NCBI GenBank assembly: GCA_019746225.1
Contig: JAIESE010000013.1
Location: forward strand, 42,063 to 106,062
Source: Alphaproteobacteria bacterium
GTDB taxonomy: Bacteria > Pseudomonadota > Alphaproteobacteria > Paracaedibacterales > VGCI01
DNA length: 64,000 nt
Direction: 5' to 3'
The notes below the pieces were generated by a model. That model made no database searches, was not told where the DNA came from, and saw nothing but the letters and a program-made list of their open reading frames with translations. The position numbers and the translations under genes were made by a program. This document shows positions 8,378 through 26,862 of the stretch, one piece after another; position 1 is the stretch's first letter; each line of letters opens with the position of its first letter.

Positions 8378-8589
8378 AGCCTTGCGCGCAACTCTAAATT
8401 GTATGGTTGGTCTTTGTTTATTGATTCAAACTCTATACAGTTTCTACCTGGTGGTCTACGTAATTTTTACATAGATGAAGTCAAATACGTTTTTTTTGGG
8501 TTAGATTATTTGTTTGTTACTAACGTAAATTAAGAAATGTAAGGTATGCAGTTATTTTACGAGCCAACTTGAATAAAAAGGAGAAAGTC

Positions 8590-11500
8590 ATGAAAAGAAA
8601 AGGTTTATTAATAAAAAGCTTGTTATTAAGTACCACGATTATGTGTGGACTCACTATGGGTGCACAACAGATACAAGAAGGCCTTGTTTATTATGGTGGG
8701 GATGGATTAACAGCACACCGAGAACAATTTACTATGGTAGGTAATCAAAGAGTGGAGCAACCCCATGGAGAATTGCCAGAACATAAAGGGTGTACGGTCA
8801 ACTATGTAGAAGCATTCTATAAGAACCAAGCCCCTATACCTTTGGCGAGACAGGGTGAGAATGCAGGAGGGTATAGATACGATGGATTTATAACAGATAA
8901 TTTCCACCCGACAATTCGAGCACAGCATCTCCTTTACAGCGACGGAGTAGATATCTATGAACCTCATGCTACGCAAGAATTGTGGACTCGTGGACAGGGA
9001 ACTCCTGGACAAGAGGATGTTCGTATTTTTATATCATCTCATAAAGATAGCCTTAAGTTGAACTGGACGCCAGGTATACGCATTGATACCCCCAATGGTA
9101 AATTACCAGCTGGCCTTTATCAATTTAGTTCATCAGAAAATTTAACTGAAGAAGTGCCTTACCATCAGAATAATGTTAACGGCGTAAGAACAAATTATTT
9201 TCGTAAGGAAAAATGGTCAAAAGTAGGAAGTGAGCAATCTTTTTACATAAACATGCCCTCGCATCACCTTGTCAGTGTTCCTGGAATGCCAGAATATATT
9301 CTTAATGAATTTCCTGAAGCGCCAAAAGATTTTGTTGATTTGAAAATGATAATTGATGCATTTGAACAGGCAGTGGCTAATAACCTAAATTTGCAACGTC
9401 CTGAGCAACGAATCATTTTTATTGGGGATGCCCGAGTCGGGAAAGACGCTCTTGCACATTATTATGCAGGTTCTGATTTATCGGTTGCGCTCAATAGGGG
9501 TTTTAGACCAGCGCGGGTTGAATTACAAGGCAATCCTCAATTAGGCTCATTAAGTGTTGTGTCTGGTATTATTGGCTCCCGAAATGTTGGCTCTTGGTTT
9601 GATCAAGCAGGCCAACGTGTCATTTGGACAACGCCTGGAGCTAATGGAATTGAAACCCCTTTGAATGATATTTTGAATGTTAAATCTCTTAAAACATTAT
9701 TAACAAAAAACAACCCATCAAAATACGTTTTAACCATTAAAGAGTCAGATTTATTTGAAGCAAATTATAAAAATCTAACTGAGGTTTTAATAAGGTTATC
9801 GCGCATGTTTGGGTATCAAGTACGGGAAGATGGTACCGTTGATATGGGGATAAATAATGATTTAAAAAATGCGCTTTCACTTGTCGTATCTCAAACTGAT
9901 CGTATGAATCAAGGTGACTTGGTTGATGGAGTCTATTTAGACCAAAATGGAGTTCAGCAGCCAGTCAAAGGCATATTACGAAATATTTTAGAAGTCATGC
10001 AAAGTGCACCTTTGAACTATGATGCTGGCGGCATGGGCATCTTGGAATATTTAGTAAATCATCCTGAACGTGTTTCTTTCTTCTCTTTGCCAAATCTCGC
10101 CAATGCACTCTATGAACCTAGAGATCCCCTCAACACAAGAGAATCCATTCAACAGAGTATAGATGTAGCAAATGGAAACGAGTCGCGTTATATGGCAGTC
10201 CAAAACCCAGCTGATATTCATATTGTTTTTAAAGAAGAATCAAATACATTCATTAAACAAGTATTGGATAAATTAAATAATCAGGTGACAAAATACTTAA
10301 GTGAGGACGCAGTTGAAACAATATGGAATCTTTGCAATCAAAAAATACTTGGGCATGAAGGAACCGTAGATGAACTTCGTGATAAGCTTCTAGCTTTCTC
10401 TAATAAGTTTAACAACGCTAACACGCAACCTCTAGACGATTTTGTGCGGGACATTGAGAGTCTAATAGGTACGAATGGAATCACAAGGAATATAAATCAT
10501 ATACGCTATTTACAAGAAAAGTTGGGTATAAATACCAATTATGCTCGCGATCAGTGGCTTGCTCCGTTGATGTCTGTCATGAACAACATTCGTTACTTAA
10601 GCTCAAAAAATGTAGTCGATGGAAGTCAAAATTTAGATACATTAAATGGAATTAACTATATTTTTGATAGCCAAAATAAAGAATTAACGCTTGTTGGCTA
10701 CTTACTTGGCATGACCGATGTGAAGAAGTTTGTAGAAAATAATCTTACGCGTAGTGGAATTACAGGCCTAACTCCGAATACTGAAATACGAAAACTCAAT
10801 CTCCTATCTCTACGAAATTTGTTAGCAGATGGTAGTTTAAGTTTGAAAGAAGCAACGGTCGTTGGAATAACACCCGAAATAGTTCAGACAACCCAGTCTG
10901 TCACGCTCGATCTTTCTGCTAGAGCCCATCCATCTATGAGTAAGGCTGCCAATGATCAAGTTGGAACGCCAGGTCTTCCCGGAAGAAACGGTGGAAGCTT
11001 AGTCTTATTAGCAAATAAATTTACTGATGCCTATAAAGTAGCCCACCCACAAAATCCAACCACATTTGAAATTAAGAAAGACGGGGGGTCGGGACAAAAC
11101 GGCCAAGAAGGGGCAATAGCACATCGGTGCCTACACCAGCGGATGGTACTACGGGAGATTGGAACGAGCATAGTTCTACGCCGGTTTCCGTAGGTCGAGG
11201 AGTAGATGATCCTGAAAAAAATAGATATTATGTGTCTGCATTGAAAGTGAAGGGTGGAACTGACGAAGATAGAAAGGGAAATCCTATTCCATGGTATAAA
11301 GCCCATTTGAGCATTGATTATACTAAGAAAGAGTATAAACAGGCAGGCATAAAAGGGACTAAAGGTAGCAATGGTAAGAATGGCGGAGCCAAAGGACTAA
11401 AAGGGCATCAAGGTCTTTTAGTTGTGGATTGTCCCAAAATAAGCCCTATCGTCGCAAGCAATCCACCCCAGGATGGGTCTGATGGAAGTGGGGGTAGCGG

Positions 11501-11882
11501 TAGCGCAGGAGGGCTCGGAGGACGTGTTAATTATAAAATTACGTACAATTATCGGCCAGGTAAATATGATCATAATGGTACAGAAATTTGGGCTAATGCT
11601 GAGGATGGAACAAGCCATTTAGGAGATGGGGGTAGGTATAGAGAGGATGGTCCTCGTCTTCTCGACAATGAGCGTGGACCTTTAGGTGATCCTGGGGATG
11701 CTGGGACTTCAGGAGCCAATACTGCTGGTCAAGTTGCTCCATCCCCCCAAATTACCGCTGACCAATTGGAAACATTAAAGACCAATAAGCTACAACTTTA
11801 TAGCACCCAATATTATGCACTTGCCGTAGATCCTGTTAAACAAAAGCTTCTCGGTAAATTTACAAACATTCCGGCCCAATAA
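8590..11882 (+). pseudogene. Signal-peptide P-loop-GTPase-like / glycine-rich (collagen-like) protein, copy A, split by a -1 frameshift
   Basis: Two overlapping ORFs, 8569-11193 (frame 1) and 11127-11882 (frame 3), together are colinear with the intact paralog 27154-30033. ATG at 8590 follows AAGGAG. Signal peptide: MKRKGLLIKSLLLSTTIMCGLTMGA. The Walker A is degenerate: GDARVGKD versus GRTGSGKS in copy B. Gly-rich tracts include GTPGLPGRNGG, DGGSGQNGQEG, GIKGTKGSNGKNGGAKGLKGHQG and DGSDGSGGSGSAGGLGG. Confidence 0.75.
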
Positions 11883-11883
11883 G

Positions 11884-11912
11884 AAGGGGGGGCTATACCC
11901 CCCTTACTTTTA
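11884..11912 (+). terminator. GC stem-loop with a short T run between the GTPase-like gene and the CdiA-like gene
   Basis: AAGGGGGG-gctata-CCCCCCTT is followed by ACTTTTAT. This may be a terminator or attenuator. Confidence 0.4.
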
Positions 11913-11939
11913 TGCAGCTAAATTTTTAAGGAGGAAAGA

Positions 11940-14900
11940 ATGAAGTACGTAGTATCTAATAACTCAGTTCACAAGGTATTCACTTTGAAAGGATGCGTTA
12001 CAAGAATTGTCATTCTTTCTCAAATAAGCTCCCATATTGCTGGAGCTATGGAAGAAGCCTTAACGGATAATCCTGTTAAGGTGTCTTCATCTTCCACTCT
12101 CGCGTATGGATTTTCTGCTTTTCCAACCAACAAGTACATTGAGACTCAACAGCAAGCTCTTAATTATTTTGGGTCACTTGATTTAACTCCAAAAGATATA
12201 CTTATATTTCCTGCGCCAATAGCACAAGCTCTGATTGTCAATCGGATTGAAAGTGGACAACCATCTAATATTGCGGGTTCAATAAAATCAGATGAATTAT
12301 CCTCCATGATGTTTAAAAATCCAAAAGGGTTTGTTATAAACAACCCTTTAATTAGCAATGTTTTAGACCTGGATTTCGTAGCTCAAGCCGATGAGTATTT
12401 TGATAACTATTCGAAAGAACGAGGTGCGATAGAAATAAAAAGCACTTCTCTTTCAAGTGGCGAACGTTTAGAAAACTTACGCCTTAAGGCTGAGTCTATC
12501 TGCATTCAAGAATCTGTTCTAGATCCATTAAATTCACTATCTATTGAGTTGCTAAAGGGAGATAAGGATCGGCTTTTGTCTAATGCCGATAAAAAACAAG
12601 CATTATACATAAATCCAAACACGATCTTGCGGGCGGCAAAACTATCAATTCATTCCCACAATCAGTTGCCCTTAATAATCGAAGGTGTTTTACAGAGTAC
12701 CGGCGGAAATATTGAGATCTTTTCAGATGGAGATATTGTGCTTCATAACGTTTCTTGTAGTGGAAAGCTGATTATTCATACTAATGGAAGGGTTATTTTT
12801 GAAAATGATGCTGCCGTAATTGGTGGTGTGGAAATACATGCTTTATCTTTCGAGAACAAAGGACGCCTCATAACTAAGGGTAATATGGATTTTGGAAAAA
12901 CCCAAATCATCAACAAAGGTCTTCTGCAGACTGAAACAGACATTTCTTCTGAGACATTACATAATAGTAAATCTGGTCATATAATCGCCAGAACCCTTGA
13001 TAATCTTATGTCTATTTTGCCCCATAATGAAGGAACGATAGAATTTTTAGATGCATGTACATTAAATGGTGAACATTCGCTCGATCTGAAAGGAACTTTG
13101 GTCGTCAACGGCCTTCTAGATTGTCAATTATCCGGTGTTGACTCCACGCTTACTTTAAGAGAGGGCAGTCAAGTAAAGGCGTTAAAAGGTGCGACTGTCA
13201 AACTTCATACTCTCACTAATCATGGAAAGTTGAACATTACCGGAGAAAATCTAGGATTATATCTCACATGTTTAAATAACTTTGGGGATATTGAATCAGT
13301 AAACGGCACTTACGGTGAGGTATTCAAGTTAGTAAATAGCGCCACCATCCGCACGCTTGGCCATTCTACGCTTAACTGTACAACCGTTGAAAATAAAGAA
13401 TCCGGCAGGTTTTATACGGCAGGGGTTCATCATGTTAATGTGACGGGAAGTTATCTTGACTCAGGTTATGTTTATTCTCCCACATTATTTTTGCTACAAG
13501 GGGCTTATCTTCAATTTCTTCCTCATCACCAATCATTTATTGCTAATGGGGTTATTAAAGCGACGCAGAAGTTAACGGTTGCTTCAGAAGCAATTTTGAA
13601 CATGAGACACCGTCTGCAATTTTACTCTGATAACACGATTGTCCATCAAGGTGTAAATAATCAGCTCCAAGAATATCACAAGTCTGATGAGGATGCTCTT
13701 TATGACACTTACTATTTGCTCAACCCAGATTTCATTGCGCCCAGATGGGAGCGGAATGTTTTTAAAGCTTACGTTAATACGTTTTTAACAGGGCATTGGG
13801 GGGACTATTTAAGAAATTTGCTTAAAGAACCTTATGGCATTGTAACAATGGCCCGGGGCGATCTCACACGACGGGGCAATGACAATATCCAAGCGGGAGG
13901 TTCACGCTATACAACTTTTGGTCAATTTAAAGGGAGCAAATCTTATATAAAAACGGGATATTTCCCAGATAATCATGCCCAAATACAAGCAGATAGTGGC
14001 AACTTTTCAAATGTTACCTTAAATGCTCTTGGGGGAAAGGTTGCTGTGAAGTTAGATAAGGATATGGAAGCAAAGAAATTTCACGCTCAAGCAAAGACTA
14101 TTGCTGAGTTAAACGTAAGGGGCTCGATGAGTCTTAAAGATGCATCCATTGCAGCCAGACTAGTCAGTTTAGAGGCTCAAAAAGATATGCAGATGAACAC
14201 TGTCACGTTACAAGCCCAAGATCATATCCATGCTTCGACTCCCGGTAAATTTCAAGCTTCAGATTTACAATTGAAAGGCGGTGCAACGACACACATAGAA
14301 GGGGATCAAGGTATCCACATACAAGGATTGCAGAATCAAAACAAAACAAGATTGAAATCATCTAAGCAAGTAATATTAGACAAAGAGGCTAAAGGAGGTG
14401 AGTTAAGCATTGAAACAACTGAAAACTTTACCAATAACGCTTCTGTTGAAGTTGATAAATTTTCCCAGAGCAGTCTCCATTTTCAAAATAATAAAAAGGT
14501 TGTAGCGAAAGGTACCCTGAAATCAAAAAGCCAAACCTATGGCGATACAGAAGAAGCTATGTTGGAAGGTTCTGAAGTAGTGCTTGATGCGCCTTTAACA
14601 AGAGGAGGATTTAAGGGAATAGTTAAAGCGGATATGGCTGAAATTCTCCTAAAAGATATGCAGCTGCAAGAACTTTTACGGCACATAGATATTCAAAACA
14701 CATTAACCTACACAGTTGATGATCATCTGGTAGTTGATGAGGATATTATCATAAAATGCAAGATGGTATTGCACGCAGTAGGTCTAGAAAATAAGTCAAG
14801 GATTACAGCAGATAAGAACTTTTTGTCATTTATAAAAAGAAATATCTTGAATGGTGGTCTCTTTCTTGGTCAAGGTTCCGCATACTTTGAAGCCGGAGGT

Positions 14901-17900
14901 GCTTTTACTAACACTGCCCAGTTAAAAGCAAAAGAAGGTTTAGGGGTCAAAGCGGCCCAAATATTAAATAAAGGTGACGAAAAGCTTCCTGCGGTAATGG
15001 AAGGCCAGGATATTTCGTTAGAATCTACCCAAGGCAGCATTGAAAGCCAGTACGGACAATTTAGGGCAAAACAATCATTTCAAGCTCGATCGGCTCGCGA
15101 TACAACTCTCGATGCTTCAGAAGTTGACGCTGGTCAATCCATAAACATTACCTCGGCACGCGATACTTTGATCCAATCCGTTGTTAAGAGACTAAAGTCT
15201 GGTGAGGGAAACTATAAAGATATTGCTGTCCGTTCATTGCTTAATTCTGGCGGATCAATAGCTCTTTTATCGGGTAACAATACAACTCTTATTGGGGCAA
15301 GATTAAAGGCAGCGCTTGATATTGGAGTTGCTGCACAGAATGTTTATAGCTTAGCTTTAGGATTAGAAGAACAAGAAACACACGCTATTACTGACGGTTC
15401 TCAGACAAAGTATAAGCTGACAAATGATGTCAGTCAGATACAGGCAGGTGGAAATGTTGGTATTCATGCAAAAGGCATGAACTACCACCAGGCAACAGAT
15501 ATTGTCGCACAAAATTTGTCATTGCTGGGTCAAGATGTTGTGATCGATGACGTTACGGATAAGTTTTACTTATCGGAAACCACAAAGCATGAAGGTGGAT
15601 TGTTCGGTCAAAATACTGAACAACAGATGCAACGGCAAGAAAGTACATCAAGAGGTGCTAATTTCAACGTTTTTGAAAGAATAGGAGTGAAGGCATTAAA
15701 TAGTATTTCTGTAAAAAATATAAAATGCCAAGCTCAAGAGACCATTCTAGATTCTCCAGAAGTTAAAATTTTGTTGGGGCGTAACGAAATGCAATCCGCA
15801 TCAACAGAAAAGAGCTCCAATGTTTTATGGGTGCGAACCACACAATCCTCCGATGAAAAATTAGATCATCAGGCTTCTGAGTTTAAGGGAGCCGTTAAAA
15901 TCAATGCTAAAAACGCAATGATAGAAAGAGTTGCAGGCCAAACTCTGGGTTTTATGAAGACCTTGTCGGGAGATATACAAAATCTATCCGAATCAGAAGT
16001 CGTTGATTACTATAATAGAAAATCGAAAACAGTCGAGGGGCCATCTCAAGCCTTCGCCATGGTAATTGCTCTAGCTGTCTCAATGACAGGTGTTGGCAGT
16101 GCTTTGGGTGCAGCGCTCGTTGGCACAACATTGTCAACTACTCTCGCGGGAACAATGGTATCCGCTGCTGTGACAACTCTATGTAGTCAAGCAGCGGTAC
16201 AGCTTATAGCTGCCAAAGGCAATATCATACAAGCAGCAGAAGCCATGGCAAATACTAAGGTTCTTGAATCTATGGCGCTGAGTGCGATAACTGCAGGGAT
16301 TACAAGTCAACTTTGTGACGTATTGCATCTTCAGTTAGACCCCATAAAAAAGAATTTATTTGACAATATAAAACAGAAAGGTGTTGAGAATGTAGTAAAT
16401 CTAGGGGCTAATATTGTTCAAGGGGGAGATGCCGATATAGCCCTTCGCAATGCTGCAGTTTCGACAGTAGTTGGGGCTTTGAGTGCATCAGCCGCGTATG
16501 AAATTGGAAATGGGTATTCGCATAACCATGTTGATCCAGTAACTCATAAATTATTGCATGCTGCTTTGGGTGCAGCTTCAGGAGCTCTACAAGGAGATGA
16601 CCCCGCTAAAGGAGCCCTAACTGGAGCCATAAGCGCTACGGTAGCTGTGACTGTTACAGATATTATTCAAAAGGACTCAAAATCAGTTGCCAAAAGGGCT
16701 CTAGATAGAGCTGAAAGAGAAAATATAGAAACAACGCCTGAGAATATGCGCGCTCTTATTCGTCAAGAAATACAAATGACCGGGGCTGGTGGAAAAATTA
16801 CAAGCGCTATTACGGCAATGCTTTTAAAACAGGATATGAATATAGCGATCGGAGCCTCTACGAATGCAATAGAAAATAATTGTCTGGAATCAATGGCTGC
16901 GCTTGCACTCCACGAGGCCAATGTCATGGCTGAAGCTAGACAAAGTGAAGGTACTGGGAAAACGACTCTATTTGAGAAAGACCGAGAGGATACTGAATGG
17001 AGTGGAGAAATTCCTTCTAAAGCACATGTTGGCATTGAGGGGGAAAAGTCTTATGTCGCTCATTATATAGCGGGCAAAAAAGCGCAATATGAGCATGATG
17101 GAAAATCGTGGGGTGAAAAAGAAATAGCACAAGCCCGTAAGGAGGCAGAAACTGAATTAAAAGGCATTGAGCAAGTTACATGGCATGAAGATGTTTTGTT
17201 AGGAGGGGCAAATATTGCGCGCAAAGCCGGTGCACATGGTTTAAAAGCAGCGGGAACCTACACTGCAGAAAAAATTCGAGAATTTGCCAAAGGGAAAGTT
17301 CAAGAGAAGGTTCAGGAGATATTAGTAGGTGAAAGTTGCTTAGATGCTGGCCAGTTTGTTGAAAGGGAAGCCCACAACCTTGGTGCAAGTGATAAAATGG
17401 CTAAAGGGCTCGGGGCAGCGACAGAACAGGGTTGTGAGCTATTCGTTTCCAATGCAATAAGCAAAGCAGCTTCGGGAGCCCGCTCATCCTCATCAGATAT
17501 CCCTCATATAGAGGCGATTTCATCAGATCATGATCAAGTTGCGCATAAAGGTTATTACGGACGAAAAGCAGATAGGGCTGAAAAACATAAATGGGATAAG
17601 GCGGTAAATGAGGCTCAACCAGCAGTATACAGCAAACATCAAAAAGCGACAACGCGAGAAGAAGCTGAAAGATTGGCACGTCCTGGAAAACCATCACAAT
17701 ATTTTCCAGGTCAAAATGTAGAAGATTTGGAAAGGGAAGCTTTAAAAAGGGGAGCAAAACTTCCTGATCTTAAAGACAAAGGAAGCACTTATGTTGAATA
17801 TGCTTTTCCTTATGAGATTGGAGTTGCTAATGGAAAACCTACTAAGAGCATACGGGTTGAAATGACAAATTCTAGTGTTCCCGAGTTTCATGGACATCCC

Positions 17901-17918
17901 AGACCTGAAAAAAAATAA
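11940..17918 (+). CDS. TpsA/CdiA-like filamentous-haemagglutinin-family exoprotein with an ENN-delimited C-terminal toxin region (1992 aa)
   Basis: An AAGGAGG RBS is present. The TPS-domain-like segment is ALIVNRIESGQPSNIAGSIKSD..MFKNPKGFVINNP (compare ILNRVTG..S.I.G and the NPNGI motifs). A long beta-helix-type repeat region follows. A Gly/Ala-rich helical DUF637-like segment is GPSQAFAMVIALAVSMTGVGSALGAALVG... A VENN-like motif, STNAIENN, lies at nt 16866-16880 and is followed by a 345-aa C-terminal region. Confidence 0.85.
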   Translation: MKYVVSNNSVHKVFTLKGCVTRIVILSQISSHIAGAMEEALTDNPVKVSSSSTLAYGFSAFPTNKYIETQQQALNYFGSLDLTPKDILIFPAPIAQALIVNRIESGQPSNIAGSIKSDELSSMMFKNPKGFVINNPLISNVLDLDFVAQADEYFDNYSKERGAIEIKSTSLSSGERLENLRLKAESICIQESVLDPLNSLSIELLKGDKDRLLSNADKKQALYINPNTILRAAKLSIHSHNQLPLIIEGVLQSTGGNIEIFSDGDIVLHNVSCSGKLIIHTNGRVIFENDAAVIGGVEIHALSFENKGRLITKGNMDFGKTQIINKGLLQTETDISSETLHNSKSGHIIARTLDNLMSILPHNEGTIEFLDACTLNGEHSLDLKGTLVVNGLLDCQLSGVDSTLTLREGSQVKALKGATVKLHTLTNHGKLNITGENLGLYLTCLNNFGDIESVNGTYGEVFKLVNSATIRTLGHSTLNCTTVENKESGRFYTAGVHHVNVTGSYLDSGYVYSPTLFLLQGAYLQFLPHHQSFIANGVIKATQKLTVASEAILNMRHRLQFYSDNTIVHQGVNNQLQEYHKSDEDALYDTYYLLNPDFIAPRWERNVFKAYVNTFLTGHWGDYLRNLLKEPYGIVTMARGDLTRRGNDNIQAGGSRYTTFGQFKGSKSYIKTGYFPDNHAQIQADSGNFSNVTLNALGGKVAVKLDKDMEAKKFHAQAKTIAELNVRGSMSLKDASIAARLVSLEAQKDMQMNTVTLQAQDHIHASTPGKFQASDLQLKGGATTHIEGDQGIHIQGLQNQNKTRLKSSKQVILDKEAKGGELSIETTENFTNNASVEVDKFSQSSLHFQNNKKVVAKGTLKSKSQTYGDTEEAMLEGSEVVLDAPLTRGGFKGIVKADMAEILLKDMQLQELLRHIDIQNTLTYTVDDHLVVDEDIIIKCKMVLHAVGLENKSRITADKNFLSFIKRNILNGGLFLGQGSAYFEAGGAFTNTAQLKAKEGLGVKAAQILNKGDEKLPAVMEGQDISLESTQGSIESQYGQFRAKQSFQARSARDTTLDASEVDAGQSINITSARDTLIQSVVKRLKSGEGNYKDIAVRSLLNSGGSIALLSGNNTTLIGARLKAALDIGVAAQNVYSLALGLEEQETHAITDGSQTKYKLTNDVSQIQAGGNVGIHAKGMNYHQATDIVAQNLSLLGQDVVIDDVTDKFYLSETTKHEGGLFGQNTEQQMQRQESTSRGANFNVFERIGVKALNSISVKNIKCQAQETILDSPEVKILLGRNEMQSASTEKSSNVLWVRTTQSSDEKLDHQASEFKGAVKINAKNAMIERVAGQTLGFMKTLSGDIQNLSESEVVDYYNRKSKTVEGPSQAFAMVIALAVSMTGVGSALGAALVGTTLSTTLAGTMVSAAVTTLCSQAAVQLIAAKGNIIQAAEAMANTKVLESMALSAITAGITSQLCDVLHLQLDPIKKNLFDNIKQKGVENVVNLGANIVQGGDADIALRNAAVSTVVGALSASAAYEIGNGYSHNHVDPVTHKLLHAALGAASGALQGDDPAKGALTGAISATVAVTVTDIIQKDSKSVAKRALDRAERENIETTPENMRALIRQEIQMTGAGGKITSAITAMLLKQDMNIAIGASTNAIENNCLESMAALALHEANVMAEARQSEGTGKTTLFEKDREDTEWSGEIPSKAHVGIEGEKSYVAHYIAGKKAQYEHDGKSWGEKEIAQARKEAETELKGIEQVTWHEDVLLGGANIARKAGAHGLKAAGTYTAEKIREFAKGKVQEKVQEILVGESCLDAGQFVEREAHNLGASDKMAKGLGAATEQGCELFVSNAISKAASGARSSSSDIPHIEAISSDHDQVAHKGYYGRKADRAEKHKWDKAVNEAQPAVYSKHQKATTREEAERLARPGKPSQYFPGQNVEDLEREALKRGAKLPDLKDKGSTYVEYAFPYEIGVANGKPTKSIRVEMTNSSVPEFHGHPRPEKK

Positions 17919-18079: not shown

Positions 18080-19267
18080 TTAAGAGGACGCTCTACCTGC
18101 TTTATTACTTCTGGAACTGATTGCTTGCGCCTTATTTCCAAAAAACTCCGCAGCCTGTCTCAACGGTGCATCCGCTAGATGTGCATATCTTTGTGTCGTT
18201 GAGGCTTGGGTATGTCCTAGTAGTTTCCCAACAATACTCAAACTTAACCCACTGGAAACCAGGTGCGAAGCATGGGTGTGTCGTAAATCATGAAGACGAA
18301 CGTTTTGTAGGCCGGCCTTTGTTTGAATAGTCTTCCAGGCTTTTTTAATATCTTGGAGGGACTTTCCATGAACTCTTCCAGGGAACAAATGGTCATCCCT
18401 GCTTATTTCTTTCATGCCCTTTAAGAGTGTAATAACTTGAGAAGAAAGGGGGAGATGTTCCATACGATTTTGTTTGGTTGTATGGGCCGGCTTCGTCCAA
18501 ATGCCTTTCTCCAAATCGAATTGATCCCATGTAGCACTTAAGACTTCTCCGCGCCTGGAGCCTGTGAGCACAAGCAACCAAATGGCGTTAGCAACATTTT
18601 GATTGTGATAGGATTCAAGTGAGCCCCATAATTTTTCGAGCTCAACTTCATCAAGCCAGCGATTGCGTTTTTGTTCCTGGTATTTTTGAACACCATTCAC
18701 AGGATTATCCGTGCGCCATTTCCATTGGATAGCGATATTGAGCATTTTGCTTAATAATGCCCGAACACGATTAGCCATGTAGGGGGTGTCCTTTAGCTCA
18801 TGATGTAAATGTTGAATATCTTGTGCTGTGAGTTCCTCAACTTTTTTGTCAGCCCAACGTTTAAGAATAATTCCTTCAAGCATCTTTTCGTCTTCCCGAT
18901 AGCTCTTTGGTCTTTTGTTGGTTTTGGCATAGAACTCTAAATATTCCTTGGCAAGATCCGCGAATGATGGTTTGATTCTCCTCGCCTGTACCTCTTGTGA
19001 TGGATCGCCCCCTTTGGCTACATCACCTAAAAGTCCTTTGGCAATTTCACGAGCTTGCTCTGCGGTAACCGCTCCATGAACGCCGATCTTTTTGCGACGT
19101 GTCCGGAAAAATTCATTACGATATTGCACAAAATATGTCTTGCGACCTGTTGGGTAAACCCTTACACCAAACCCCCTGATCTCAGAATCCCAAACAAGCA
19201 GTTCCTCACTCTTATCTGGCTTAATGCTTTCAACAACCCACTTGGTTAGCTTCCTGCCGTCTTTCAT
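18080..19267 (-). CDS. int: P4-type tyrosine integrase (395 aa)
   Basis: The N-terminal arm-binding-type segment is GFGVRVYPTGRKTYFVQYR. The catalytic-region motifs are LHDLRHTHASHL (HxxR) and LLGHTQASTTQRYAHL (catalytic Tyr). Confidence 0.95.
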   Translation of the reverse strand: MKDGRKLTKWVVESIKPDKSEELLVWDSEIRGFGVRVYPTGRKTYFVQYRNEFFRTRRKKIGVHGAVTAEQAREIAKGLLGDVAKGGDPSQEVQARRIKPSFADLAKEYLEFYAKTNKRPKSYREDEKMLEGIILKRWADKKVEELTAQDIQHLHHELKDTPYMANRVRALLSKMLNIAIQWKWRTDNPVNGVQKYQEQKRNRWLDEVELEKLWGSLESYHNQNVANAIWLLVLTGSRRGEVLSATWDQFDLEKGIWTKPAHTTKQNRMEHLPLSSQVITLLKGMKEISRDDHLFPGRVHGKSLQDIKKAWKTIQTKAGLQNVRLHDLRHTHASHLVSSGLSLSIVGKLLGHTQASTTQRYAHLADAPLRQAAEFFGNKAQAISSRSNKAGRASS

Positions 19268-19440
19268 GTCTGTCTCCTTCTCATTGGTAATAGAAATTAT
19301 AAATCCGGAAGCAATCCGGAAGCAATTGAAATCGATTCAATGATATTTTGATGTATGATGCAAGATGTCAGTTTCGGCAAAAATCGTTTATTTATAGTTA
19401 GTTATAGACGCAGGGAGAACGTATGATATGATCAGTCCCA

Positions 19441-19489
19441 CTGACTCTTAATCAGCGGGTCGCAGGTTCGATCCCTGCAGCGCCCACCA
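19441..19489 (+). other. 3' fragment of tRNA-Lys(CTT), from the anticodon arm to CCA; probable att site
   Basis: CTGACTCTTAATCAGCGGGTCGCAGGTTCGATCCCTGCAGCGCCCACCA contains the anticodon loop CTCTTAA, a T arm GCAGG-TTCGATC-CCTGC, and the acceptor 3' strand plus CCA. No matching acceptor 5' strand (GGGCGCT) or D arm lies upstream, so the tRNA is incomplete. Confidence 0.8.
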
Positions 19490-19888
19490 TAGAAATCAAG
19501 GGTTTCAGGTCAAAGAAATCATAAAGATAGGCAACCAAGTTTTTCCAGGTCTAGATAAATGGTGTAAGCAAGTTCTAGACGTTAATTGGGGTGAAAATTT
19601 TATAAAAATGTACAAAGAGGGAAATCTTGATTATTATATGATTAACTTACAGAAAGTAGAATCAAGAGCTTACATAACGCCCAACCATATTCACTTTAAT
19701 ACCTGAAGCTATTCAGCTCCACTCTTGAATAAACCTTTCGTCTAAAATTTTAGTACTTTATTATATTTATGGGCAATTTTTGTTTATAATTTGCAAATAC
19801 TTAAAAATATCATTATACAAGCTAATTAGAATTTAAATTACATGTAAATCATGTATTGAAATTGTATTTAAATTTTTGGAGATATTTT

Positions 19889-20890
19889 ATGATACCTTGT
19901 TGTTTTCACCCAACCACAGTGTTGGTTATTGATGATCATTGTGAATTCCTAGAGGGACTCAACCTTGTCCTGTCGCCTGATCAAGCTATATATAAGTTTT
20001 TTACCAATCCTAAAAAAGCATTAGACGTTCTTGAATCTCACATCCCTAATCCCTTCTCCAACCGCTATATCCAAAATGTAGATGAGGAGCAATGGGAACA
20101 TCGTCGGTTAGACGTCAATATATTCGATATCTATCAGGAAATTTACAGACCTCATCGTTTTGATGAGATCTCAACAATTGTTGTTGATTACTCAATGCCA
20201 GAAATGACCGGTCTTGAATTATGTAAGAAGATTGCCCATTTGCCCATACAGAAAATCCTTTTAACAGGAGAAGCAGATGAGCAAATTGCTATTCAAGCTT
20301 TTAACGAGGGGTTGATACAGCATTATATTCGTAAACATGATCGAAGCATGGCTGACCAATTAAACCAAGCCATTATGAAAGCGCAATGGCGGTATTTTCT
20401 GAACTTATCCGAGGTTGCTCTTCAAGCAATTGCTGGCGTTGATGTTGTCGATCATGCCGTTCTCGATTCAAACTTCCACATTTTTTTCAATAATTTGCTT
20501 AAAGAACATAAGCTTAAAGAAGCATATATATGTGAATCAATGGGAAGCTATTTGTTTTTAACAGAAGAGGCTAAAGCGTATGGACTTGTCGTGAGTATTG
20601 CTGAGGAATTAGATATTTGTGCTGATATAGGAGAAGCTCATAACATTTCCCCATCACTTGTAAGACAGCTCAGGGATCGTAAAATGATGATGTGTTATCA
20701 TGATCGACAACGTTTATCGGAGCTTAATGCTGTGGATTGGGTTAAATATGCTTATCCAGTCAAAACTTTGGAAGGTGTCAATCGTACCTACTACCATGCA
20801 TTTGCGCCCAATATATTTCAGATTGATCAATCCAAAGTTATCTCTGTAGAGAATATCCAAGATGGAAAGAACTTTGAAGTTCAATCGTAA
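19889..20890 (+). CDS. Response regulator with an insert-containing receiver domain and an unassigned ~200-aa C-terminal domain (LqsR-like architecture)
   Basis: VLVIDDH is followed by an insertion of about 45 aa, then STIVVDYSMPEMTGLELC (acceptor Asp is residue 100 counted from Met at 19889) and ILLTGEAD. No HTH is recognisable. The listed TTG start at 19856 is probably spurious. Confidence 0.8.
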   Translation: MIPCCFHPTTVLVIDDHCEFLEGLNLVLSPDQAIYKFFTNPKKALDVLESHIPNPFSNRYIQNVDEEQWEHRRLDVNIFDIYQEIYRPHRFDEISTIVVDYSMPEMTGLELCKKIAHLPIQKILLTGEADEQIAIQAFNEGLIQHYIRKHDRSMADQLNQAIMKAQWRYFLNLSEVALQAIAGVDVVDHAVLDSNFHIFFNNLLKEHKLKEAYICESMGSYLFLTEEAKAYGLVVSIAEELDICADIGEAHNISPSLVRQLRDRKMMMCYHDRQRLSELNAVDWVKYAYPVKTLEGVNRTYYHAFAPNIFQIDQSKVISVENIQDGKNFEVQS

Positions 20891-21047
20891 AAATTACAAT
20901 TATGCGCTAAGAAGAGATATATAAATTCAGATCATGGAATAAGTAAATAACTAGCGATTAAGCGCCTGCGACAATTTGGCAGTATAAAGGTAGGTTTATT
21001 ACCGATAATTTTACAATATGTGATAAAAATAAAATGGAAAGCATATT

Positions 21048-21920
21048 GTGCATTATCAAAAGTGCCAAGAGGCAAATGTAACGTTTGCACCTATTTCTTT
21101 TAAATCTAGGAATGAAATAAATGAGAATAGATTAAACTGGCTTGAGAAGTATTCGAAAAAACTACCTGTGCCAAATTCATTTGGTAATTTCATATCAGAG
21201 CAACACCATTTAGATACCCTTGAGTTGTTTATTCAATCAACCCTGGAAACGCGCCATAGGGGGTTATTTTTTCTTCAAAAGATAATTCCTCAATTAACTA
21301 ACAAGTCTGCCTTTTTAGACATAGGTCCTGGCAAAGGAAAATTAACCAAATGGATAGGTAGAAAGTTTAAGGCTATTACCGTAGTAGACCCATGTTCATT
21401 AGCATTAGATAATATTAGGTTACAGCATTTCAAAACGGGTACTTCTTTGGCTAAAATCCAAGATAATTTTATGAACACTGAATTTAACACCCAGAGTTTT
21501 GATCTCATCAATATGTCACATGTCATTTATTATATTGAGAAAGATCATTTAATTGAAAATATGAAAAGGGCCTATGATCTTCTAAGACCGAATGGAGTCC
21601 TTGTGATTGTTTTCAATGAAGGGTTGCACAGGGAGCAGCTAGCACAGGATTTTGGAGCACGACCAAATTCTTTTGAATTATTTTTAAGAGAATTTTCAAT
21701 CTTCTATGATGTAAATATTCATTTATACTTATCAAAAGAAAGTTTTCTGGTAAGTAATTTAGCATCAATGCTGCATATATGCGGGTTACATCTGCATGAT
21801 TATGGGCAAAAAGTTGACAATAATTCTTTAAAAGCATATATTAAGCACCATTATTTACTTCCTGAAGGCAAGTACAGCATGAGCATGTACCAGAAGTTTG
21901 CTATCATCAGGAAAAACTAG
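21048..21920 (+). CDS. Class I SAM-dependent methyltransferase (290 aa)
   Basis: Motif I: LDIGPGKG. Post-I: VVDP. Motif II: FDLINMSHVIYY. Motif III: LRPNGVLVIVF. It has a GTG start, and the start is uncertain. Confidence 0.85.
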   Translation: MHYQKCQEANVTFAPISFKSRNEINENRLNWLEKYSKKLPVPNSFGNFISEQHHLDTLELFIQSTLETRHRGLFFLQKIIPQLTNKSAFLDIGPGKGKLTKWIGRKFKAITVVDPCSLALDNIRLQHFKTGTSLAKIQDNFMNTEFNTQSFDLINMSHVIYYIEKDHLIENMKRAYDLLRPNGVLVIVFNEGLHREQLAQDFGARPNSFELFLREFSIFYDVNIHLYLSKESFLVSNLASMLHICGLHLHDYGQKVDNNSLKAYIKHHYLLPEGKYSMSMYQKFAIIRKN

Positions 21921-21926
21921 GATAGC

Positions 21927-23246
21927 TTGGTGCTAAATTTTTTAGGTCGAATTCATAATAAAATTGTTCATAAATCTCAAGAAGAAGATTATCCATACTT
22001 CACGTATGGTTTGTTTCAACTGATCAGCAATCCTATTTACTACATCCTCTGGTTTTTTGTTGATGAACAAAGTTATGAGAATATCTGGGTAAGAACGCTC
22101 ATATCTCTTTCGTGCATACCACTGGTTTTTTTTAAACGTTGGCATCCAAACTATAAGAGGTTCTTACCACTATATTGGTATATTGTTTGTCTTTATACCC
22201 TCCCCTTCTTTTTTACCTTTATGCTCTTAAAGAATGACCTTTCTTATGGGTGGTCGCTCAACAGTCTCACTGGTGTTGTTTTATGTATTTTATTTCTTGA
22301 TATAGAATCTTTAATGATTCTTGTGCCGATAGGTACTTTTCTAGGATGGCTTGCACATCATATAACAACACCGCTTCCATATTATGATTTTGCTACTATC
22401 AAAACCCTGATGATAACATACGGCTCGGCGTTTATCTTTGGAGGGTTGTTTGCTCAGCGGGCACGAAAGACTAATAGAGAAAAAATTCAAACAATGAAAA
22501 TGTTAGCTGGCTCCATAGCACATGAGCTACGGACGCCTCTATCTGCCATAATGATGAACTCAGAAGCTTTATTACGTTATATGCCCTATTACCAAGATGC
22601 CTATCTCAAGGCTACAGATGCAAATTTGCTAACTAAGAAACTTCATCACAGTGAACATACCAATTTCAATAAAATACCTAGCAGTCTTCAGAAGCTCAGT
22701 GGTAATGCACAAACGATGATCAACATGCTTCTGACCAATTTAAGTGAAGGAAATGATGACAATAAAGAAGAGTTATGTTCGATGAATCAATGCATAAAAG
22801 AGGCCTTAACCGAATATCCGTTTGCTGCACCTGAAAAAACGATGGTTCATTGGGATGATAAAGATGATTTCTTGTTCCTTGGCCAAAAACAAATAATGAA
22901 GCACGTAATATTTAATTTATTGAAAAATTCTTTGTATGCCATTGCTGCTGTTGGAAAAGGGAAAATATTTATCAATCTGGTACCATCAAATTCTTTTGAA
23001 ACGAAAAATATTTTAGTTTTTACAGATACGGGCTCTGGAATTGCTGCACAGCATCTTCCTCATATTTTTGAACGTTTTTATACCAAGACCCGACATGGTA
23101 CAGGAATTGGCCTTGCGTTTTGCCAAACAGCTATTCAGGGATTTGGAGGAAAAATTTCTTGTTCATCTAAGTTTGGTGAAAATACAACTTTCACCATTAC
23201 ATTGCCTATTTTGAAGGATGGGAAACTGCGGGAAGTCGCCTTCTGA
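21927..23246 (+). CDS. Membrane sensor histidine kinase with 5-6 N-terminal TM helices (LqsS/CqsS-like architecture)
   Basis: The N-terminal ~180 aa is multi-pass and hydrophobic. The H box is SIAHELRTPLSAI, with His at residue 199. The N box is FNLLKNSLYA. The G boxes are DTGSGI and GTGIGLAFC. Confidence 0.9.
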   Translation: MVLNFLGRIHNKIVHKSQEEDYPYFTYGLFQLISNPIYYILWFFVDEQSYENIWVRTLISLSCIPLVFFKRWHPNYKRFLPLYWYIVCLYTLPFFFTFMLLKNDLSYGWSLNSLTGVVLCILFLDIESLMILVPIGTFLGWLAHHITTPLPYYDFATIKTLMITYGSAFIFGGLFAQRARKTNREKIQTMKMLAGSIAHELRTPLSAIMMNSEALLRYMPYYQDAYLKATDANLLTKKLHHSEHTNFNKIPSSLQKLSGNAQTMINMLLTNLSEGNDDNKEELCSMNQCIKEALTEYPFAAPEKTMVHWDDKDDFLFLGQKQIMKHVIFNLLKNSLYAIAAVGKGKIFINLVPSNSFETKNILVFTDTGSGIAAQHLPHIFERFYTKTRHGTGIGLAFCQTAIQGFGGKISCSSKFGENTTFTITLPILKDGKLREVAF

Positions 23247-23520: not shown

Positions 23521-26500
23521 TCACACTTGGACCTTAGCTAGCTTTTCTTTAATTTTTTTTATATGGGCAGAATCTTCTGGGAAATGAGCTTTTACAATAT
23601 CATAGGCTTGTTTTAGGTAGTTATAGGCTTGATCTCTAAAGAGACCTTGAGTGTTTACAGTCAATGAAGCCTTTTTGAAATAGAGGTCGCCTAGGCTTTC
23701 AAGAGCTGCATATTTTTCAGGATGGTTGTTATTTTGATAAATCCCTAAAGCTTTAGATAGGAAATTATTAGCGTTATCCAATTCTCCTTCCATAAGATAG
23801 ACTCGACCAAGATCCAATATAATATGCGCTAAGAATATATTGGATTCACCATGGAGACTTTGATATACAACTAAAGCTTCTTTAAGAAGGGTTTTTGCTG
23901 TTATATAATTCCCTATTTCTCCCTCAAAGATACCTAAATTCACCTTGGCATTCGCAATTCTCATCGTATTTTCAGGGCAATATGCCTTATACATTTCTAG
24001 GGCGTTTTTAAGCAGGGGTTTAGCTTTTTCAAACTTTCCCATTTTTCGGTAAATGTTTCCTAGATTTGTTAAAGCAAAAGCTACCGCCGAATTATTCTCA
24101 TATTTATCCTTTTTATAGATTACAAGTGACTCTTCGAGTAATTTTGCAGCTTCCTCATAGTTGCCGAGGTCACCATGAGTTATCCCCAAAAGAACTAGAA
24201 TATGAGCAACCTTGAAATGAACTTCAGAAAAATTTCGTTTGGAAATCTCAAGGCTTTGTTCTAACAGATCTCGTGCTTTCTTATGGTTTCCAAGATAAGA
24301 ATGCACAATCGCTAAATGTGATAATGGTGTTAATGGTTCAGATAATAAGAAATCTTCTTTGGGAGATTGATGCTTGTTTATATCAATACACATTTCAAGT
24401 AGATTTTTGGCCTGACCATAATCGCCTAAATCTCTATAAACATTCCCCAAATAAAAGAGGGACCGACTATATTCTAATTGATTGTTGGGGAGATGGTGTT
24501 TATAAAGTGAAATGCTTTTCTCGAGGCTATCTTTAGCCGCTACATAATTACCTAAGGTCCGGTATGTATTTCCTAAAAAAGACAAGGTTCTGGCAAGAAG
24601 CATATCATCTTTATTTTTGAGAGAATTCAACGTAGCGATATTTTTTTCTAAATATATTCTAGAGTTTATATAATCGTTTAAAATAAAGTACATATATCCT
24701 AAATTTGTGGCCAACGTCGCCTTATTAGATTCATTTAATAAGTGATTATGGGTTAGAAATTTTTCTAAATGTTCTTTAAAGCGTCTTATCTTTATCGTAT
24801 TTCCCTTTTCGATTATATCATTTGTATGTACTTCTAAAACATGAGAAATATTTTTCAAAATTTCATTGTTGCTATCCAGTCTAACTCTTCTTGAAATATA
24901 GGCTAAAATGATCTCTTGTATCGAACGGTGAAACGATAATGTGGCTTCACTAGAATCAGAAGATGTATCTGTAACAAGAGAGTACTTTTTTAAATTATAA
25001 ATGAAATTATCAACAATCGTATGGTCTTTGTATTTTACTAACAAGTCTCTAGGTATATTTTGGGAATCAATAAGACTGACCAACAAGAGGAGATCTCTAA
25101 AATCGTTGTTTGTATCTATAAGTTTGTTAAGAGACAACGCAACGATCCCATATCGCGTCTTGGTGTAATCCCCTGCTTCCTTTAAAAGGGATTCTTGGAC
25201 TATTGTGAAATCTTGATTATCGTGAGTTAGGTTATCAAGATATTCTGAGTAGGTAATATTTGTGGTTTTTAAATAATAAGCCGCAATGGATACATCAAGA
25301 GGAAATGGGGGAAGCTTTTCAAGGAATATCTTTGCTTCTTCTGTCTGTGCGTGTGAAAAAACGTTTTCCTTTCCCCCACTCATAATCTTAGAAAAAAGAG
25401 CCAGTTTTTGCTGAGGGGTAAGTTCTTCGATTTGGAGTGTGCTACCAATATGCTTATTGTTTTGAATGTTGCTGTCCCGTGTTGCAAGAATAACTTTCCC
25501 CTGGCCCCACGTGGCAGAATCTTGAGGAAAGTGTGTTTGAATATCTGAAAACTTTTCCACGTTGTCAAAGATAAGAACCCAATCTGAATGTGACCTCAAG
25601 CGCTCTTTTACGAATTGGGTGATCCTGTCTTCTCTTTTATTCATAGGCTTTATATTTTGAATCTCTTTTAGGAGTTTTTGATCTTCATCAGTCTGAGCGA
25701 GAGCTTGGGATAAGGCTTCAAATGATGAATTAAGCATCTCATGAGTTTCTGCATTGATTTCCCAAATAACATTAGCTTTTTGTGCATGGGCAAATTGCCT
25801 TGCTAGGGTCGTCTTTCCTGCTCCTCCCGGTGCTATGAGGGCGATGGTTTGTATGCCCTTTTGTTCCGTAAGCTTCTTCTCTATCTTGGCAAGAAGCTCT
25901 GGTCGTGAAAGAAAAGATGACTCTGATGGAATAGCTAAATCTGAACGAATAACCGTTTGTCTTTGAGCTGTATAATAGTAGCCCCATTTATAGATCAGTA
26001 AGCCAGTACATGATAACATTATCAGAACAAGCAACCCAAAGAGAGCAAGCCAACTTCTCCGTTTCGACAAACTCTTGATACTCTTCTCTTCTTTTGTAGG
26101 AGTTTGAAGAAAGGAAGTTTTACCTTTCTGATCAAGCTTTGTGATGAGATCATCGAAATTAAAACCTGGAAAGAGGACCTTTAAAATCTCAATCAATGAG
26201 GCTAAATATGTCTTTTGGTCCAAGGAGAGAAGAACTCTTTTCTTTTTATCAATCACAAACAAAAGGGCATTGGTTGAACTTTCATTTTGGTCTTGTGACT
26301 CCTGAGATGCCTTTATACCCTCATTTTTTTCAAGTTCTTCTCTAAGGATGTTTGGAATAACATAAAGAGCATACCTTGAAGTGAGAGATTGTATCTCTTT
26401 CATAAGAGAAGACATTGTACATGGAATACAACGAGTCTCAAGTGTAACAATCACCCCAGCAGCTTTGAGAGGCTGTTCCAGTTGAGAAATGTCAGAGCTT

Positions 26501-26862
26501 TCTGTCCAAAGAATTAGAGAACACGATGGTCCAACGTCACCAACTTTTTTAGAGACTTCTTTTAGCTTCTGCTCAAAGGCAAATTGACAAACAAGTTCTG
26601 AATAATGCTGTTTCAAAAGATGAACTTTATCTGAGGCTTCAAGAAAGTCAATGATGCTCTCACGAGAATTGCACTCAAGCTTTATAGAGATGTTATGAAT
26701 ATAGTTTTCAACGGTTTTGGGAGAAAGTGACAAAAAAGAGGCTATTTTTTTAGCCGTCCTACCACTCAAGATACAGGCAAGAATGTCAATTTCACGGGGT
26801 GTAAATTTAATTCCATTTATTGAGCCTGCTTCAAGGATAGTTTTATGATTCATGTCTGTCAT
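23521..26862 (-). CDS. STAND regulator, copy B: LuxR/GerE HTH, TM-like helix, NB-ARC, TPR array (1113 aa)
   Basis: HTH: FTPREIDILACILSGRTAKKIASFLSLSPKTVENYIHNISIKL. Hydrophobic helix: WLALFGLLVLIMLSCTGLLIY (aa 271-291). Walker A: APGGAGKT. Further motifs: WVLIFDNVE, GKVILATRD and LPPFPLDVSIAAYYL. A TPR array follows. Confidence 0.9.
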   Translation of the reverse strand: MTDMNHKTILEAGSINGIKFTPREIDILACILSGRTAKKIASFLSLSPKTVENYIHNISIKLECNSRESIIDFLEASDKVHLLKQHYSELVCQFAFEQKLKEVSKKVGDVGPSCSLILWTESSDISQLEQPLKAAGVIVTLETRCIPCTMSSLMKEIQSLTSRYALYVIPNILREELEKNEGIKASQESQDQNESSTNALLFVIDKKKRVLLSLDQKTYLASLIEILKVLFPGFNFDDLITKLDQKGKTSFLQTPTKEEKSIKSLSKRRSWLALFGLLVLIMLSCTGLLIYKWGYYYTAQRQTVIRSDLAIPSESSFLSRPELLAKIEKKLTEQKGIQTIALIAPGGAGKTTLARQFAHAQKANVIWEINAETHEMLNSSFEALSQALAQTDEDQKLLKEIQNIKPMNKREDRITQFVKERLRSHSDWVLIFDNVEKFSDIQTHFPQDSATWGQGKVILATRDSNIQNNKHIGSTLQIEELTPQQKLALFSKIMSGGKENVFSHAQTEEAKIFLEKLPPFPLDVSIAAYYLKTTNITYSEYLDNLTHDNQDFTIVQESLLKEAGDYTKTRYGIVALSLNKLIDTNNDFRDLLLLVSLIDSQNIPRDLLVKYKDHTIVDNFIYNLKKYSLVTDTSSDSSEATLSFHRSIQEIILAYISRRVRLDSNNEILKNISHVLEVHTNDIIEKGNTIKIRRFKEHLEKFLTHNHLLNESNKATLATNLGYMYFILNDYINSRIYLEKNIATLNSLKNKDDMLLARTLSFLGNTYRTLGNYVAAKDSLEKSISLYKHHLPNNQLEYSRSLFYLGNVYRDLGDYGQAKNLLEMCIDINKHQSPKEDFLLSEPLTPLSHLAIVHSYLGNHKKARDLLEQSLEISKRNFSEVHFKVAHILVLLGITHGDLGNYEEAAKLLEESLVIYKKDKYENNSAVAFALTNLGNIYRKMGKFEKAKPLLKNALEMYKAYCPENTMRIANAKVNLGIFEGEIGNYITAKTLLKEALVVYQSLHGESNIFLAHIILDLGRVYLMEGELDNANNFLSKALGIYQNNNHPEKYAALESLGDLYFKKASLTVNTQGLFRDQAYNYLKQAYDIVKAHFPEDSAHIKKIKEKLAKVQV

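Follow-up and report, generated by a model that had tools for sequence, protein, structure and literature searches.

Within a 64,000-nucleotide stretch of an alphaproteobacterial genome (assembly GCA_019746225.1, contig JAIESE010000013.1, positions 42,063 to 106,062 of the forward strand; hereafter the window), three co-directional genes encode a response regulator (RR), a methyltransferase and a membrane histidine kinase (HK). The regulator is a homolog of LqsR and the kinase a homolog of LqsS and CqsS. On balance, we favor the view that this locus is a self-contained signal/receptor module whose ligand is methylated and is not an α-hydroxyketone. The module, from a Holosporales-type (Paracaedibacteraceae-like) alphaproteobacterium, would be built on an LqsS/LqsR two-component chassis in which the LqsA/CqsA synthase has been replaced by a class I S-adenosylmethionine (SAM) methyltransferase, here called MT-A. 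An initial annotation, made from the sequence alone, had placed the three genes at positions 19889-23246; the open reading frame (ORF) listing and domain scans bear these coordinates out. The locus is made up as follows.

19889..20890, forward strand: LqsR-family response regulator, 333 aa, with an interrupted receiver, Asp100, an LqsR-type C-terminal output domain and no DNA-binding motif.
21048..21920, forward strand: MT-A, a 290-aa class I SAM methyltransferase (small-molecule type) whose motif I, LDIGPGKGKLT, is at residue 90.
21921..21926, forward strand: 6-base gap between the MT-A stop and the HK start, from the ORF coordinates.
21927..22481, forward strand: six-transmembrane (six-TM) sensor domain of LqsS/CqsS type, HK residues 1-185, with determinants W109, N112, Y165, S167, F171, L174 and F175.
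22482..23246, forward strand: kinase core of HK, comprising the DHp domain with His199 and the CA domain (Pfam HisKA and HATPase_c).

The whole HK gene spans 21927-23246 (439 aa) and starts ~1 kb downstream of the regulator gene on the same strand. Its distance from MT-A is only 6 bases, implying that the two are co-transcribed.

We took the ATG at 19889 as the start of the regulator; a TTG at 19856 would add 11 aa, and the homologs begin at MIPCC. Pfam recognizes only a Response_reg domain, at residues 81-161 of the 344-aa ORF and from profile position 19 onward. The first receiver strand, TVLVIDD, lies ~50 aa farther upstream of this match, which shows the receiver to be interrupted. Counted along the 333-aa protein, the acceptor Asp is residue 100, and it aligns with that of LqsR in the motif VVDYxMP. 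Pfam and domain scans detected no helix-turn-helix (HTH) or other output domain. A phmmer search of the PDB matched the regulator to 6sy9 (E 3.4e-46; query 8-331, chain 21-346), and the match includes the ~170-aa C-terminal domain. The 6sy9 chain can be identified as L. pneumophila LqsR because it is almost identical to the L. pneumophila ORF between the hdeD and lqsA homologs. By BLASTP, the window regulator is 31% identical to that ORF over 326 aa (E 8e-50). At the level of sequence, the regulator is thereby confirmed as a true full-length LqsR homolog, output domain included. It also clusters with an LqsS-type kinase, a pairing that recurs in most of 79 related loci (related loci are denoted by L numbers below). 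Its closest counterparts in species-representative genomes are in a Ca. Finniella metagenome-assembled genome (MAG; 65% identity) and, among further Holosporales, in Nucleicultricaceae, Ca. Odyssella and Ca. Paracaedibacter symbiosus; the genomes were scanned with a 9-sequence alignment that included LqsR.

Two side observations concern regulators of this family. Five homologs from alphaproteobacterial MAGs (P0043, P0053, P0061, P0069 and P0073) have lost the acceptor Asp or carry insertions of 4-13 aa at the phosphorylation site (alignment A1, columns 113-129); they look like pseudo-receivers that may signal without phosphorylation. Separately, a recurrent ~230-aa protein with weak similarity to HTH_19 or Peptidase_S24 (LexA/CI-like) adjoins several LqsS/LqsR-like pairs (L087 3523-4236, L091 3742-4419, L008 9139-9852, L018 2746-3405 and L004 993-1766), and is a candidate DNA-binding partner for the HTH-less regulator.

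The kinase carries HisKA and HATPase_c domains, an H-box (HELRTP) with His199 and, ahead of it, six hydrophobic segments between residues 27 and 176. This position of the histidine agrees with the family expectation of ~195-200 residues from the N-terminus; the phosphorylated residues of the known proteins are LqsR D108, LqsS H200 and CqsS H194 (Tiaden and Hilbi 2012, PMC3376566). The L. moravica protein served as our full-length LqsS reference; the LqsS gene of L. pneumophila subsp. fraseri (L065, ~6330-6400) is broken by a stretch of masked bases (N) a little upstream of the H-box. The window kinase is 34% identical to L. moravica LqsS over residues 28-429 (E 5e-52), an alignment that covers all of the hydrophobic segments and pairs His199 with His200. 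Against the L. pneumophila LqsS ORF it is 34% identical over 139 aa of the N-terminal membrane part (E 2e-21), and against V. campbellii CqsS, encoded beside a CqsA homolog, 29% identical over 418 aa (E 2e-54). These alignments confirm the kinase as a true full-length LqsS/CqsS homolog, six-TM sensor included. The initial annotation had thus correctly read the interrupted receiver, Asp100, the HTH-less output, the N-terminal TM helices and His199; the D108 and H200 positions that it gave agree with the literature (PMC3376566), and the kinship that it suspected for both proteins extends over their full length.

It had also reported no CqsA/LqsA-type synthase nearby, and this too held up. A profile hidden Markov model built from 25 LqsA/CqsA homologs and run on all ORFs of at least 70 aa in the window gave no match, even at E<=10. 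The Holosporales-type loci, inspected to ~8 kb on each side of the regulator gene, had no LqsA/CqsA either. Among the 79 related loci, the canonical layout, seen in Legionella and several beta- and gammaproteobacteria, is HK(+), optional hdeD(-), LqsR(+), LqsA(-). The likeness originally drawn to an lqsR-hdeD-lqsS arrangement is only a surface one: the L. pneumophila genes run lqsS(+), hdeD(-), lqsR(+), lqsA(-). Nor can MT-A be taken as the counterpart of hdeD, a gene whose place in the lqs cluster, confined to six closely related Legionella species, is considered a coincidence (PMC8023197), whereas MT-A is tightly and recurrently coupled to the kinase.

MT-A matches the Pfam families Methyltransf_23/11/25 with E-values of 1e-12 to 1e-13. 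Its AlphaFold2 model (pLDDT 88.6) has as best Foldseek neighbors histamine N-methyltransferase (full length, TM-score ~0.6), BioC, HvrF, trans-aconitate methyltransferase, JHAMT and NodS, a set that includes both carboxyl methyltransferases (BioC, trans-aconitate methyltransferase, JHAMT) and N-methyltransferases. As modeled, then, MT-A resembles small-molecule methyltransferases. Among 5.8 billion protein clusters, only 14 relatives were found at E<1e-5 in a single-sequence search and 23 clusters in a profile search. The family is discrete, since its weakest member still scores 263 bits and no match falls between that score and E 1e-8.

We inspected every readable MT-A context, 15 independent ones in all. 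Fourteen of them have a full-length LqsS-like kinase and an LqsR-like regulator next to MT-A, and in 12 of the 15 MT-A is directly upstream of the kinase. In most of these 12 pairs the genes share 4 to 26 bp or are separated by no more than 22 bp; the exceptions are L032, with a 159-bp gap, and L030, where the maximal ORFs overlap by 1.3 kb. The linkage spans at least two bacterial classes and persists through several gene orders (RR>MT>HK, MT>HK>RR, RR> <HK<MT and MT> <RR<HK). One might suppose that MT-A is a chance neighbor of the kinase, as hdeD is considered to be in the Legionella lqs cluster (PMC8023197). With 14 of 15 contexts linked in different classes and gene orders, genes overlapping or a few bases apart, and a family that is essentially absent elsewhere, this is extremely improbable. 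The same two facts, the near-universal linkage and the absence elsewhere, argue that MT-A is part of the signaling system and not a bystander. In L050 and L024, unannotated ORFs precede the kinases; checked for unrecognized membership of the family, they proved not to be MT-A.

Some loci carry extended cassettes. L081 (1014-4662) encodes MT-A, an amidohydrolase, a second MT-A and then the kinase; L002 (9626-11748) combines an EgtD-like histidine-type methyltransferase with a different methyltransferase, MT-B; and in L085 (4916-5731) and L086 an Asp/Glu racemase gene is divergent from MT-A. Because of these extended cassettes and the likeness of MT-A to histamine N-methyltransferase, there are hints that the ligands derive from amino acids or amines.

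Other enzymes occupy the position of MT-A in related loci. MT-B, of the Methyltransf_11 family, abuts the kinase start in L002 and L059 (60% identity between loci), and L002 also has the EgtD-like protein (Methyltransf_33). A PF14518 heme-oxygenase-like (HO-like) iron enzyme abuts the kinase start in L001 and L009 (51% identity between loci). MT-B was considered as a relative of MT-A and set aside, the two having only the generic SAM motif in common. Ca. Paracaedibacter symbiosus has three such loci: L009 with the HO-like enzyme, L011 with MT-A and L032 with a divergent MT-A. When sensor and kinase core were compared separately, the identities were as follows.

Window versus MT-A-linked L011/L084: sensor 53-56%, kinase core 39-41%.
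Window versus HO-linked L001: sensor 37%, kinase core 61%.
Window versus MT-B-linked L002: sensor 34%, kinase core 58%.
L011 (MT-A) versus L009 (HO), both from P. symbiosus: sensor 29%, kinase core 96%.

Partitioned neighbor-joining bootstrap trees of 37 sequences gave the same picture. The sensor partition placed the MT-A-linked window, L081, L084 and L011 together with 98% bootstrap. In the kinase partition, by contrast, L011 paired with L009 (100%) and the window joined L081, L001 and L002 (96%); neither partition gave any bootstrap support (0%) to the grouping of the other. Regulator identity tracks the kinase core and lineage (window versus L001 65%, L002 54%, L011 35%). At the DNA level, L011 and L009 are 83.6% identical over 3.37 kb covering the upstream ORF, the regulator and the kinase core. 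This homology breaks off at the sensor/kinase junction, near kinase residue 180, and picks up again for 112 bp past the enzyme gene. The break at the junction identifies the unit of exchange as a ~1.5-kb cassette of enzyme plus sensor domain; the trees and identities show the enzyme traveling with the sensor and not with the kinase core.

This pattern bears on whether MT-A might act on protein, methylating the kinase or the regulator to tune signaling as CheR does on chemoreceptors. MT-A does match two Pfam families weakly, CheR at E 0.009 and the protein N-terminal methyltransferases (PF05891) at E 6e-8, and NTMT1 is among its lower Foldseek matches. The top structural neighbors, however, are small-molecule enzymes; MT-A co-varies with the membrane-embedded sensor, while the kinase core and regulator follow lineage; and unrelated enzymes (HO-like, MT-B) sit in the same slot. 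We therefore regard a protein substrate as very unlikely.

The sensor domains also differ at positions that determine ligand recognition. In CqsS, the TM4 determinants W104 and S107 correspond to LqsS S111 and S114, and the TM6 determinants F160, F162, F166 and C170 to LqsS I166, F168, A172 and T175/L176; every Vibrio CqsS protein, and LqsS as well, has the TM4 Ser (PMC3376566). In an alignment of 45 sensors, the window kinase has Asn112 in place of this Ser (CqsS S107/LqsS S114) and Ser167 in place of the TM6 gatekeeper Phe (CqsS F162/LqsS F168), and it retains the Trp of the CqsS W104 position (W109). Grouped by linked enzyme, the two positions read as follows.

LqsA/CqsA-linked kinases: Ser in 12/12 at LqsS-114; Phe in 11/11 at LqsS-168.
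MT-A-linked kinases: Asn in 13/13 at LqsS-114 (N112 in the window); Ser in 11/13 at LqsS-168 (S167 in the window; Cys in L030, Ala in L032).
MT-B-linked kinases: Asn at LqsS-114; Tyr or Trp at LqsS-168.
HO-linked kinases: Asn at LqsS-114; Ala at LqsS-168.

The same changes turn up in kinase lineages kept apart by the core tree, and so track the enzyme and not only descent.

The initial annotation had offered two readings of the locus: an eavesdropping receptor for signals of the Legionella/Vibrio type, or a module with a methylated ligand. Under the former, the kinase would detect α-hydroxyketones of the LAI-1 or CAI-1 type made by others, and the methyltransferase would be unrelated to signaling. 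The kinase and regulator are indeed true LqsS/LqsR homologs in a window with no LqsA, and there are receptor-only Legionella species for which eavesdropping has been proposed (PMC8023197). Against this stand the residues just described, with both the Ser and the Phe replaced in the window kinase and the Ser kept by 12/12 LqsA/CqsA-linked kinases but by 0/13 MT-A-linked ones. The window sensor is only 28% identical to that of L. moravica LqsS, and the locus has its own enzyme, linked in 14/15 contexts and swapped together with the sensor domain. Eavesdropping on LAI-1 or CAI-1 is thus disfavored, and we hold it to be quite unlikely. The second reading, a methylated ligand, fits the MT-A linkage, the cassette co-inheritance and the changed residues best.

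The same two residues vary among the Legionella-type LqsS sensors (L013-L079). Where lqsA is in the locus, Ser114 and Phe168 are both kept (14/14); where it is not, both are kept in 10/18 and one is replaced (L, A, V or S) in 8/18. This suggests that in some "listening-only" Legionella species ligand specificity has been relaxed or altered. The residues equivalent to S114 and F168 could serve as simple sequence markers for telling which orphan LqsS proteins probably still read α-hydroxyketones, and as such bear on the eavesdropping hypothesis for lqsA-less Legionella species.

How the methylated-ligand module would operate, from the product of MT-A as ligand and the nature of that ligand to the direction of kinase control and the output, we infer as follows. 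MT-A would methylate a common cellular metabolite to give a membrane-soluble small molecule; in a less likely variant, it would methylate the molecule that is sensed. The six-TM sensor would bind the MT-A-derived molecule within the membrane, and binding would switch the kinase between its kinase and phosphatase states at His199. Phosphate would then pass from His199 to Asp100 of the LqsR-type regulator, whose output, having no DNA-binding fold, would act indirectly on downstream partners, as LqsR does.

The relation of enzyme to ligand could also be reversed. The sensor may detect a small molecule from the environment or host that is the substrate of MT-A, and MT-A may modify, inactivate or detoxify it (quenching or adaptation), in which case the signal would not be self-made. 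If enzyme and sensor bind the same compound, co-inheritance and residue covariation are expected as well; the best structural match of MT-A, histamine N-methyltransferase, is a catabolic, inactivating enzyme; and the carriers live inside host cells as obligate or facultative symbionts, where they are exposed to metabolites of the host. But MT-A lies upstream of the kinase in one operon and is not itself a target gene under separate regulation, and the regulator has no DNA-binding domain with which to induce a detoxification gene. The synthase-then-receptor order is moreover typical of autoinducer systems such as phcBSR. We therefore consider substrate sensing possible but rather doubtful, and retain a self-made, methylated ligand as the preferred reading.

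Several points weigh against that preference. A sensor that reads the substrate of the enzyme, and not its product, would explain the co-inheritance of the two just as well. Common ancestry of the sensor cassettes is a partial confounder of the residue covariation; moreover, the MT-A-linked L030 and L032 do not have Ser at position 168, and L024 and L050 do have it but with unrelated upstream ORFs. L093, the most distant MT-A member and the one unlinked context of the 15, has no kinase on its 8.4-kb contig, which comes from a conjugative element. The search of this genome for lqsA/cqsA covered 64 kb, and the trees are neighbor-joining trees of 37 sequences. Finally, the P. symbiosus kinase genes are split into two ORFs in both loci and may be decaying. 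Such split genes, in two overlapping ORFs, are these:

L009 9046-10358, reverse strand: P. symbiosus kinase gene.
L011 9024-10300, reverse strand: P. symbiosus kinase gene.
L004 2575-3895, forward strand: Ca. Finniella kinase gene.

The splits could reflect a frameshift, an assembly error or pseudogenization.

Beyond this locus, we tentatively propose that in protist-associated Holosporales and some other bacteria the CqsS/LqsS family may be a platform for diversified private signals. Cassettes of ~1.5 kb, each a synthase with its matching sensor, would be recombined onto a conserved kinase-core/LqsR chassis. Three enzyme types (MT-A, MT-B with or without the EgtD-like protein, and a heme-oxygenase-like oxidase) would then represent several undescribed chemistries other than α-hydroxyketones, sometimes with three systems in one genome (Ca. 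P. symbiosus).

Until now, LqsS and CqsS have been seen as dedicated α-hydroxyketone sensors paired with a CqsA/LqsA synthase, and receptor-only loci have been read as eavesdropping. Lqs homologs with LqsA are known from several proteobacteria (PMC3376566), and for Legionella the literature already describes receptor-only lqsS/lqsR loci and proposes eavesdropping (PMC8023197). Our literature search, which was not exhaustive, found no report of LqsS/LqsR in Holosporales or of LqsR in Paracaedibacter, and none of methyltransferase- or oxidase-linked LqsS/CqsS kinases or of enzyme-plus-sensor cassette exchange. The locus and its relatives represent a large, unstudied LqsS/CqsS branch in intracellular protist symbionts, in which other enzymes fill the synthase slot and the sensor domain moves with the enzyme as a recombining cassette. 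The replacement of the usual synthase by MT-A points to an undescribed signal chemistry and away from a receptor that listens in on Legionella or Vibrio. Should the enzymes prove to make the ligands, these loci would offer bacterial signals of new classes, a natural experiment on the co-evolution of receptor specificity and signal synthesis, and ready-made orthogonal signal/receptor pairs for synthetic biology.

The surroundings of the module in the window include the following features.

18080-19267, reverse strand: P4-type tyrosine integrase, upstream of the regulator gene.
19415-19489: degenerate tRNA-like 3' part, 150 bp from the integrase start.
23521-26862, reverse strand: LuxR(GerE)-NB-ARC-TPR STAND regulator, downstream of HK and convergent with it.
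4820-8377, reverse strand: paralogous LuxR(GerE)-NB-ARC-TPR STAND regulator.
47-1237, forward strand: TPR-only fragment.

The non-coding DNA upstream of the regulator gene measures ~620 bp (19268-19888) and not the 400 bp first given; the island junction proposed for this region does fit the integrase and the adjoining tRNA-like remnant. The remnant keeps an intact T-arm, 3' acceptor strand and CCA, and the matching 5' acceptor strand is absent. It scores 20 bits against the Rfam tRNA family (threshold 29), ARAGORN calls no tRNA at 19415-19489, and no second copy of its 33-nt 3' part occurs within the window. It is probably an att remnant at the island junction. Just left of the integrase (8569-17918), ORFs of 874 and 251 aa without Pfam domains are followed by a 1,992-aa CdiA-like/hemagglutinin-like protein (DUF637), which may be contact-dependent toxin cargo of the island. 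The two STAND paralogs are 35% identical over ~1,100 aa. The one adjoining HK was considered as the missing DNA-binding output and rejected, being conserved beside the module in none of the related loci. A promoter/terminator scan gave no useful signal, with 16 promoter-like sites against 17.3 expected. With the giant CdiA-like DUF637 protein, a leucine-rich repeat protein, the STAND regulators and many orphans, the gene content fits a protist symbiont.

Among described systems, L. pneumophila's Lqs system (LqsA synthase, LqsS/LqsT kinases and LqsR, with the signal LAI-1) shares with the window the interrupted receiver (D100 versus D108), an output domain that does not bind DNA, and the six-TM sensor kinase (His199 versus His200). 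It differs in having LqsA, where the window has a SAM methyltransferase co-operonic with the kinase; in its strand arrangement, since RR, MT-A and HK of the window all lie on one strand; and in its α-hydroxyketone-reading Ser and Phe, both replaced in the window, whose host is a Holosporales-type alphaproteobacterium. Vibrio CqsA/CqsS, which uses CAI-1, has a sensor of the same six-TM family, alignable over the 418 aa noted above and with the Trp in common (W104/W109). CqsS, however, is of the hybrid type: it carries a receiver of its own and feeds into LuxU/LuxO, whereas the window uses a separate LqsR-type regulator, contains no CqsA and does not conserve S107 and F162.

Receptor-only lqsS/lqsR loci, described in non-pneumophila Legionella with a proposal of interspecies listening (Herran et al. 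2021, PMC8023197), resemble the window in having LqsS and LqsR without LqsA. They keep Legionella synteny and have no co-operonic enzyme, whereas the window has a dedicated enzyme-plus-sensor cassette.

In the phcBSR(Q) system of Ralstonia, the methyltransferase PhcB makes methyl 3-hydroxymyristate or -palmitate, the kinase PhcS (His230) senses it, and PhcR and PhcQ have no DNA-binding domain. A plasmid search with MT-A gave only two weak, irrelevant matches, and no homolog on Ralstonia megaplasmids. The likeness is one of logic and gene order only, and the kinase and regulator of the window clearly belong to the LqsS and LqsR families. Both systems nevertheless have a SAM methyltransferase gene, then a membrane histidine kinase, then receiver regulators without a DNA-binding domain as their elements: in the window, the methyltransferase gene lies 6 bp upstream of the kinase gene in an operon with an HTH-less regulator, and the phcBSR-like order MT, HK, RR itself is found in seven MT-A loci, including L030, L032, L084, L092, L094 and L095. 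The closest analogy for the module is thus that it may work like phcB-phcS-phcR of Ralstonia.

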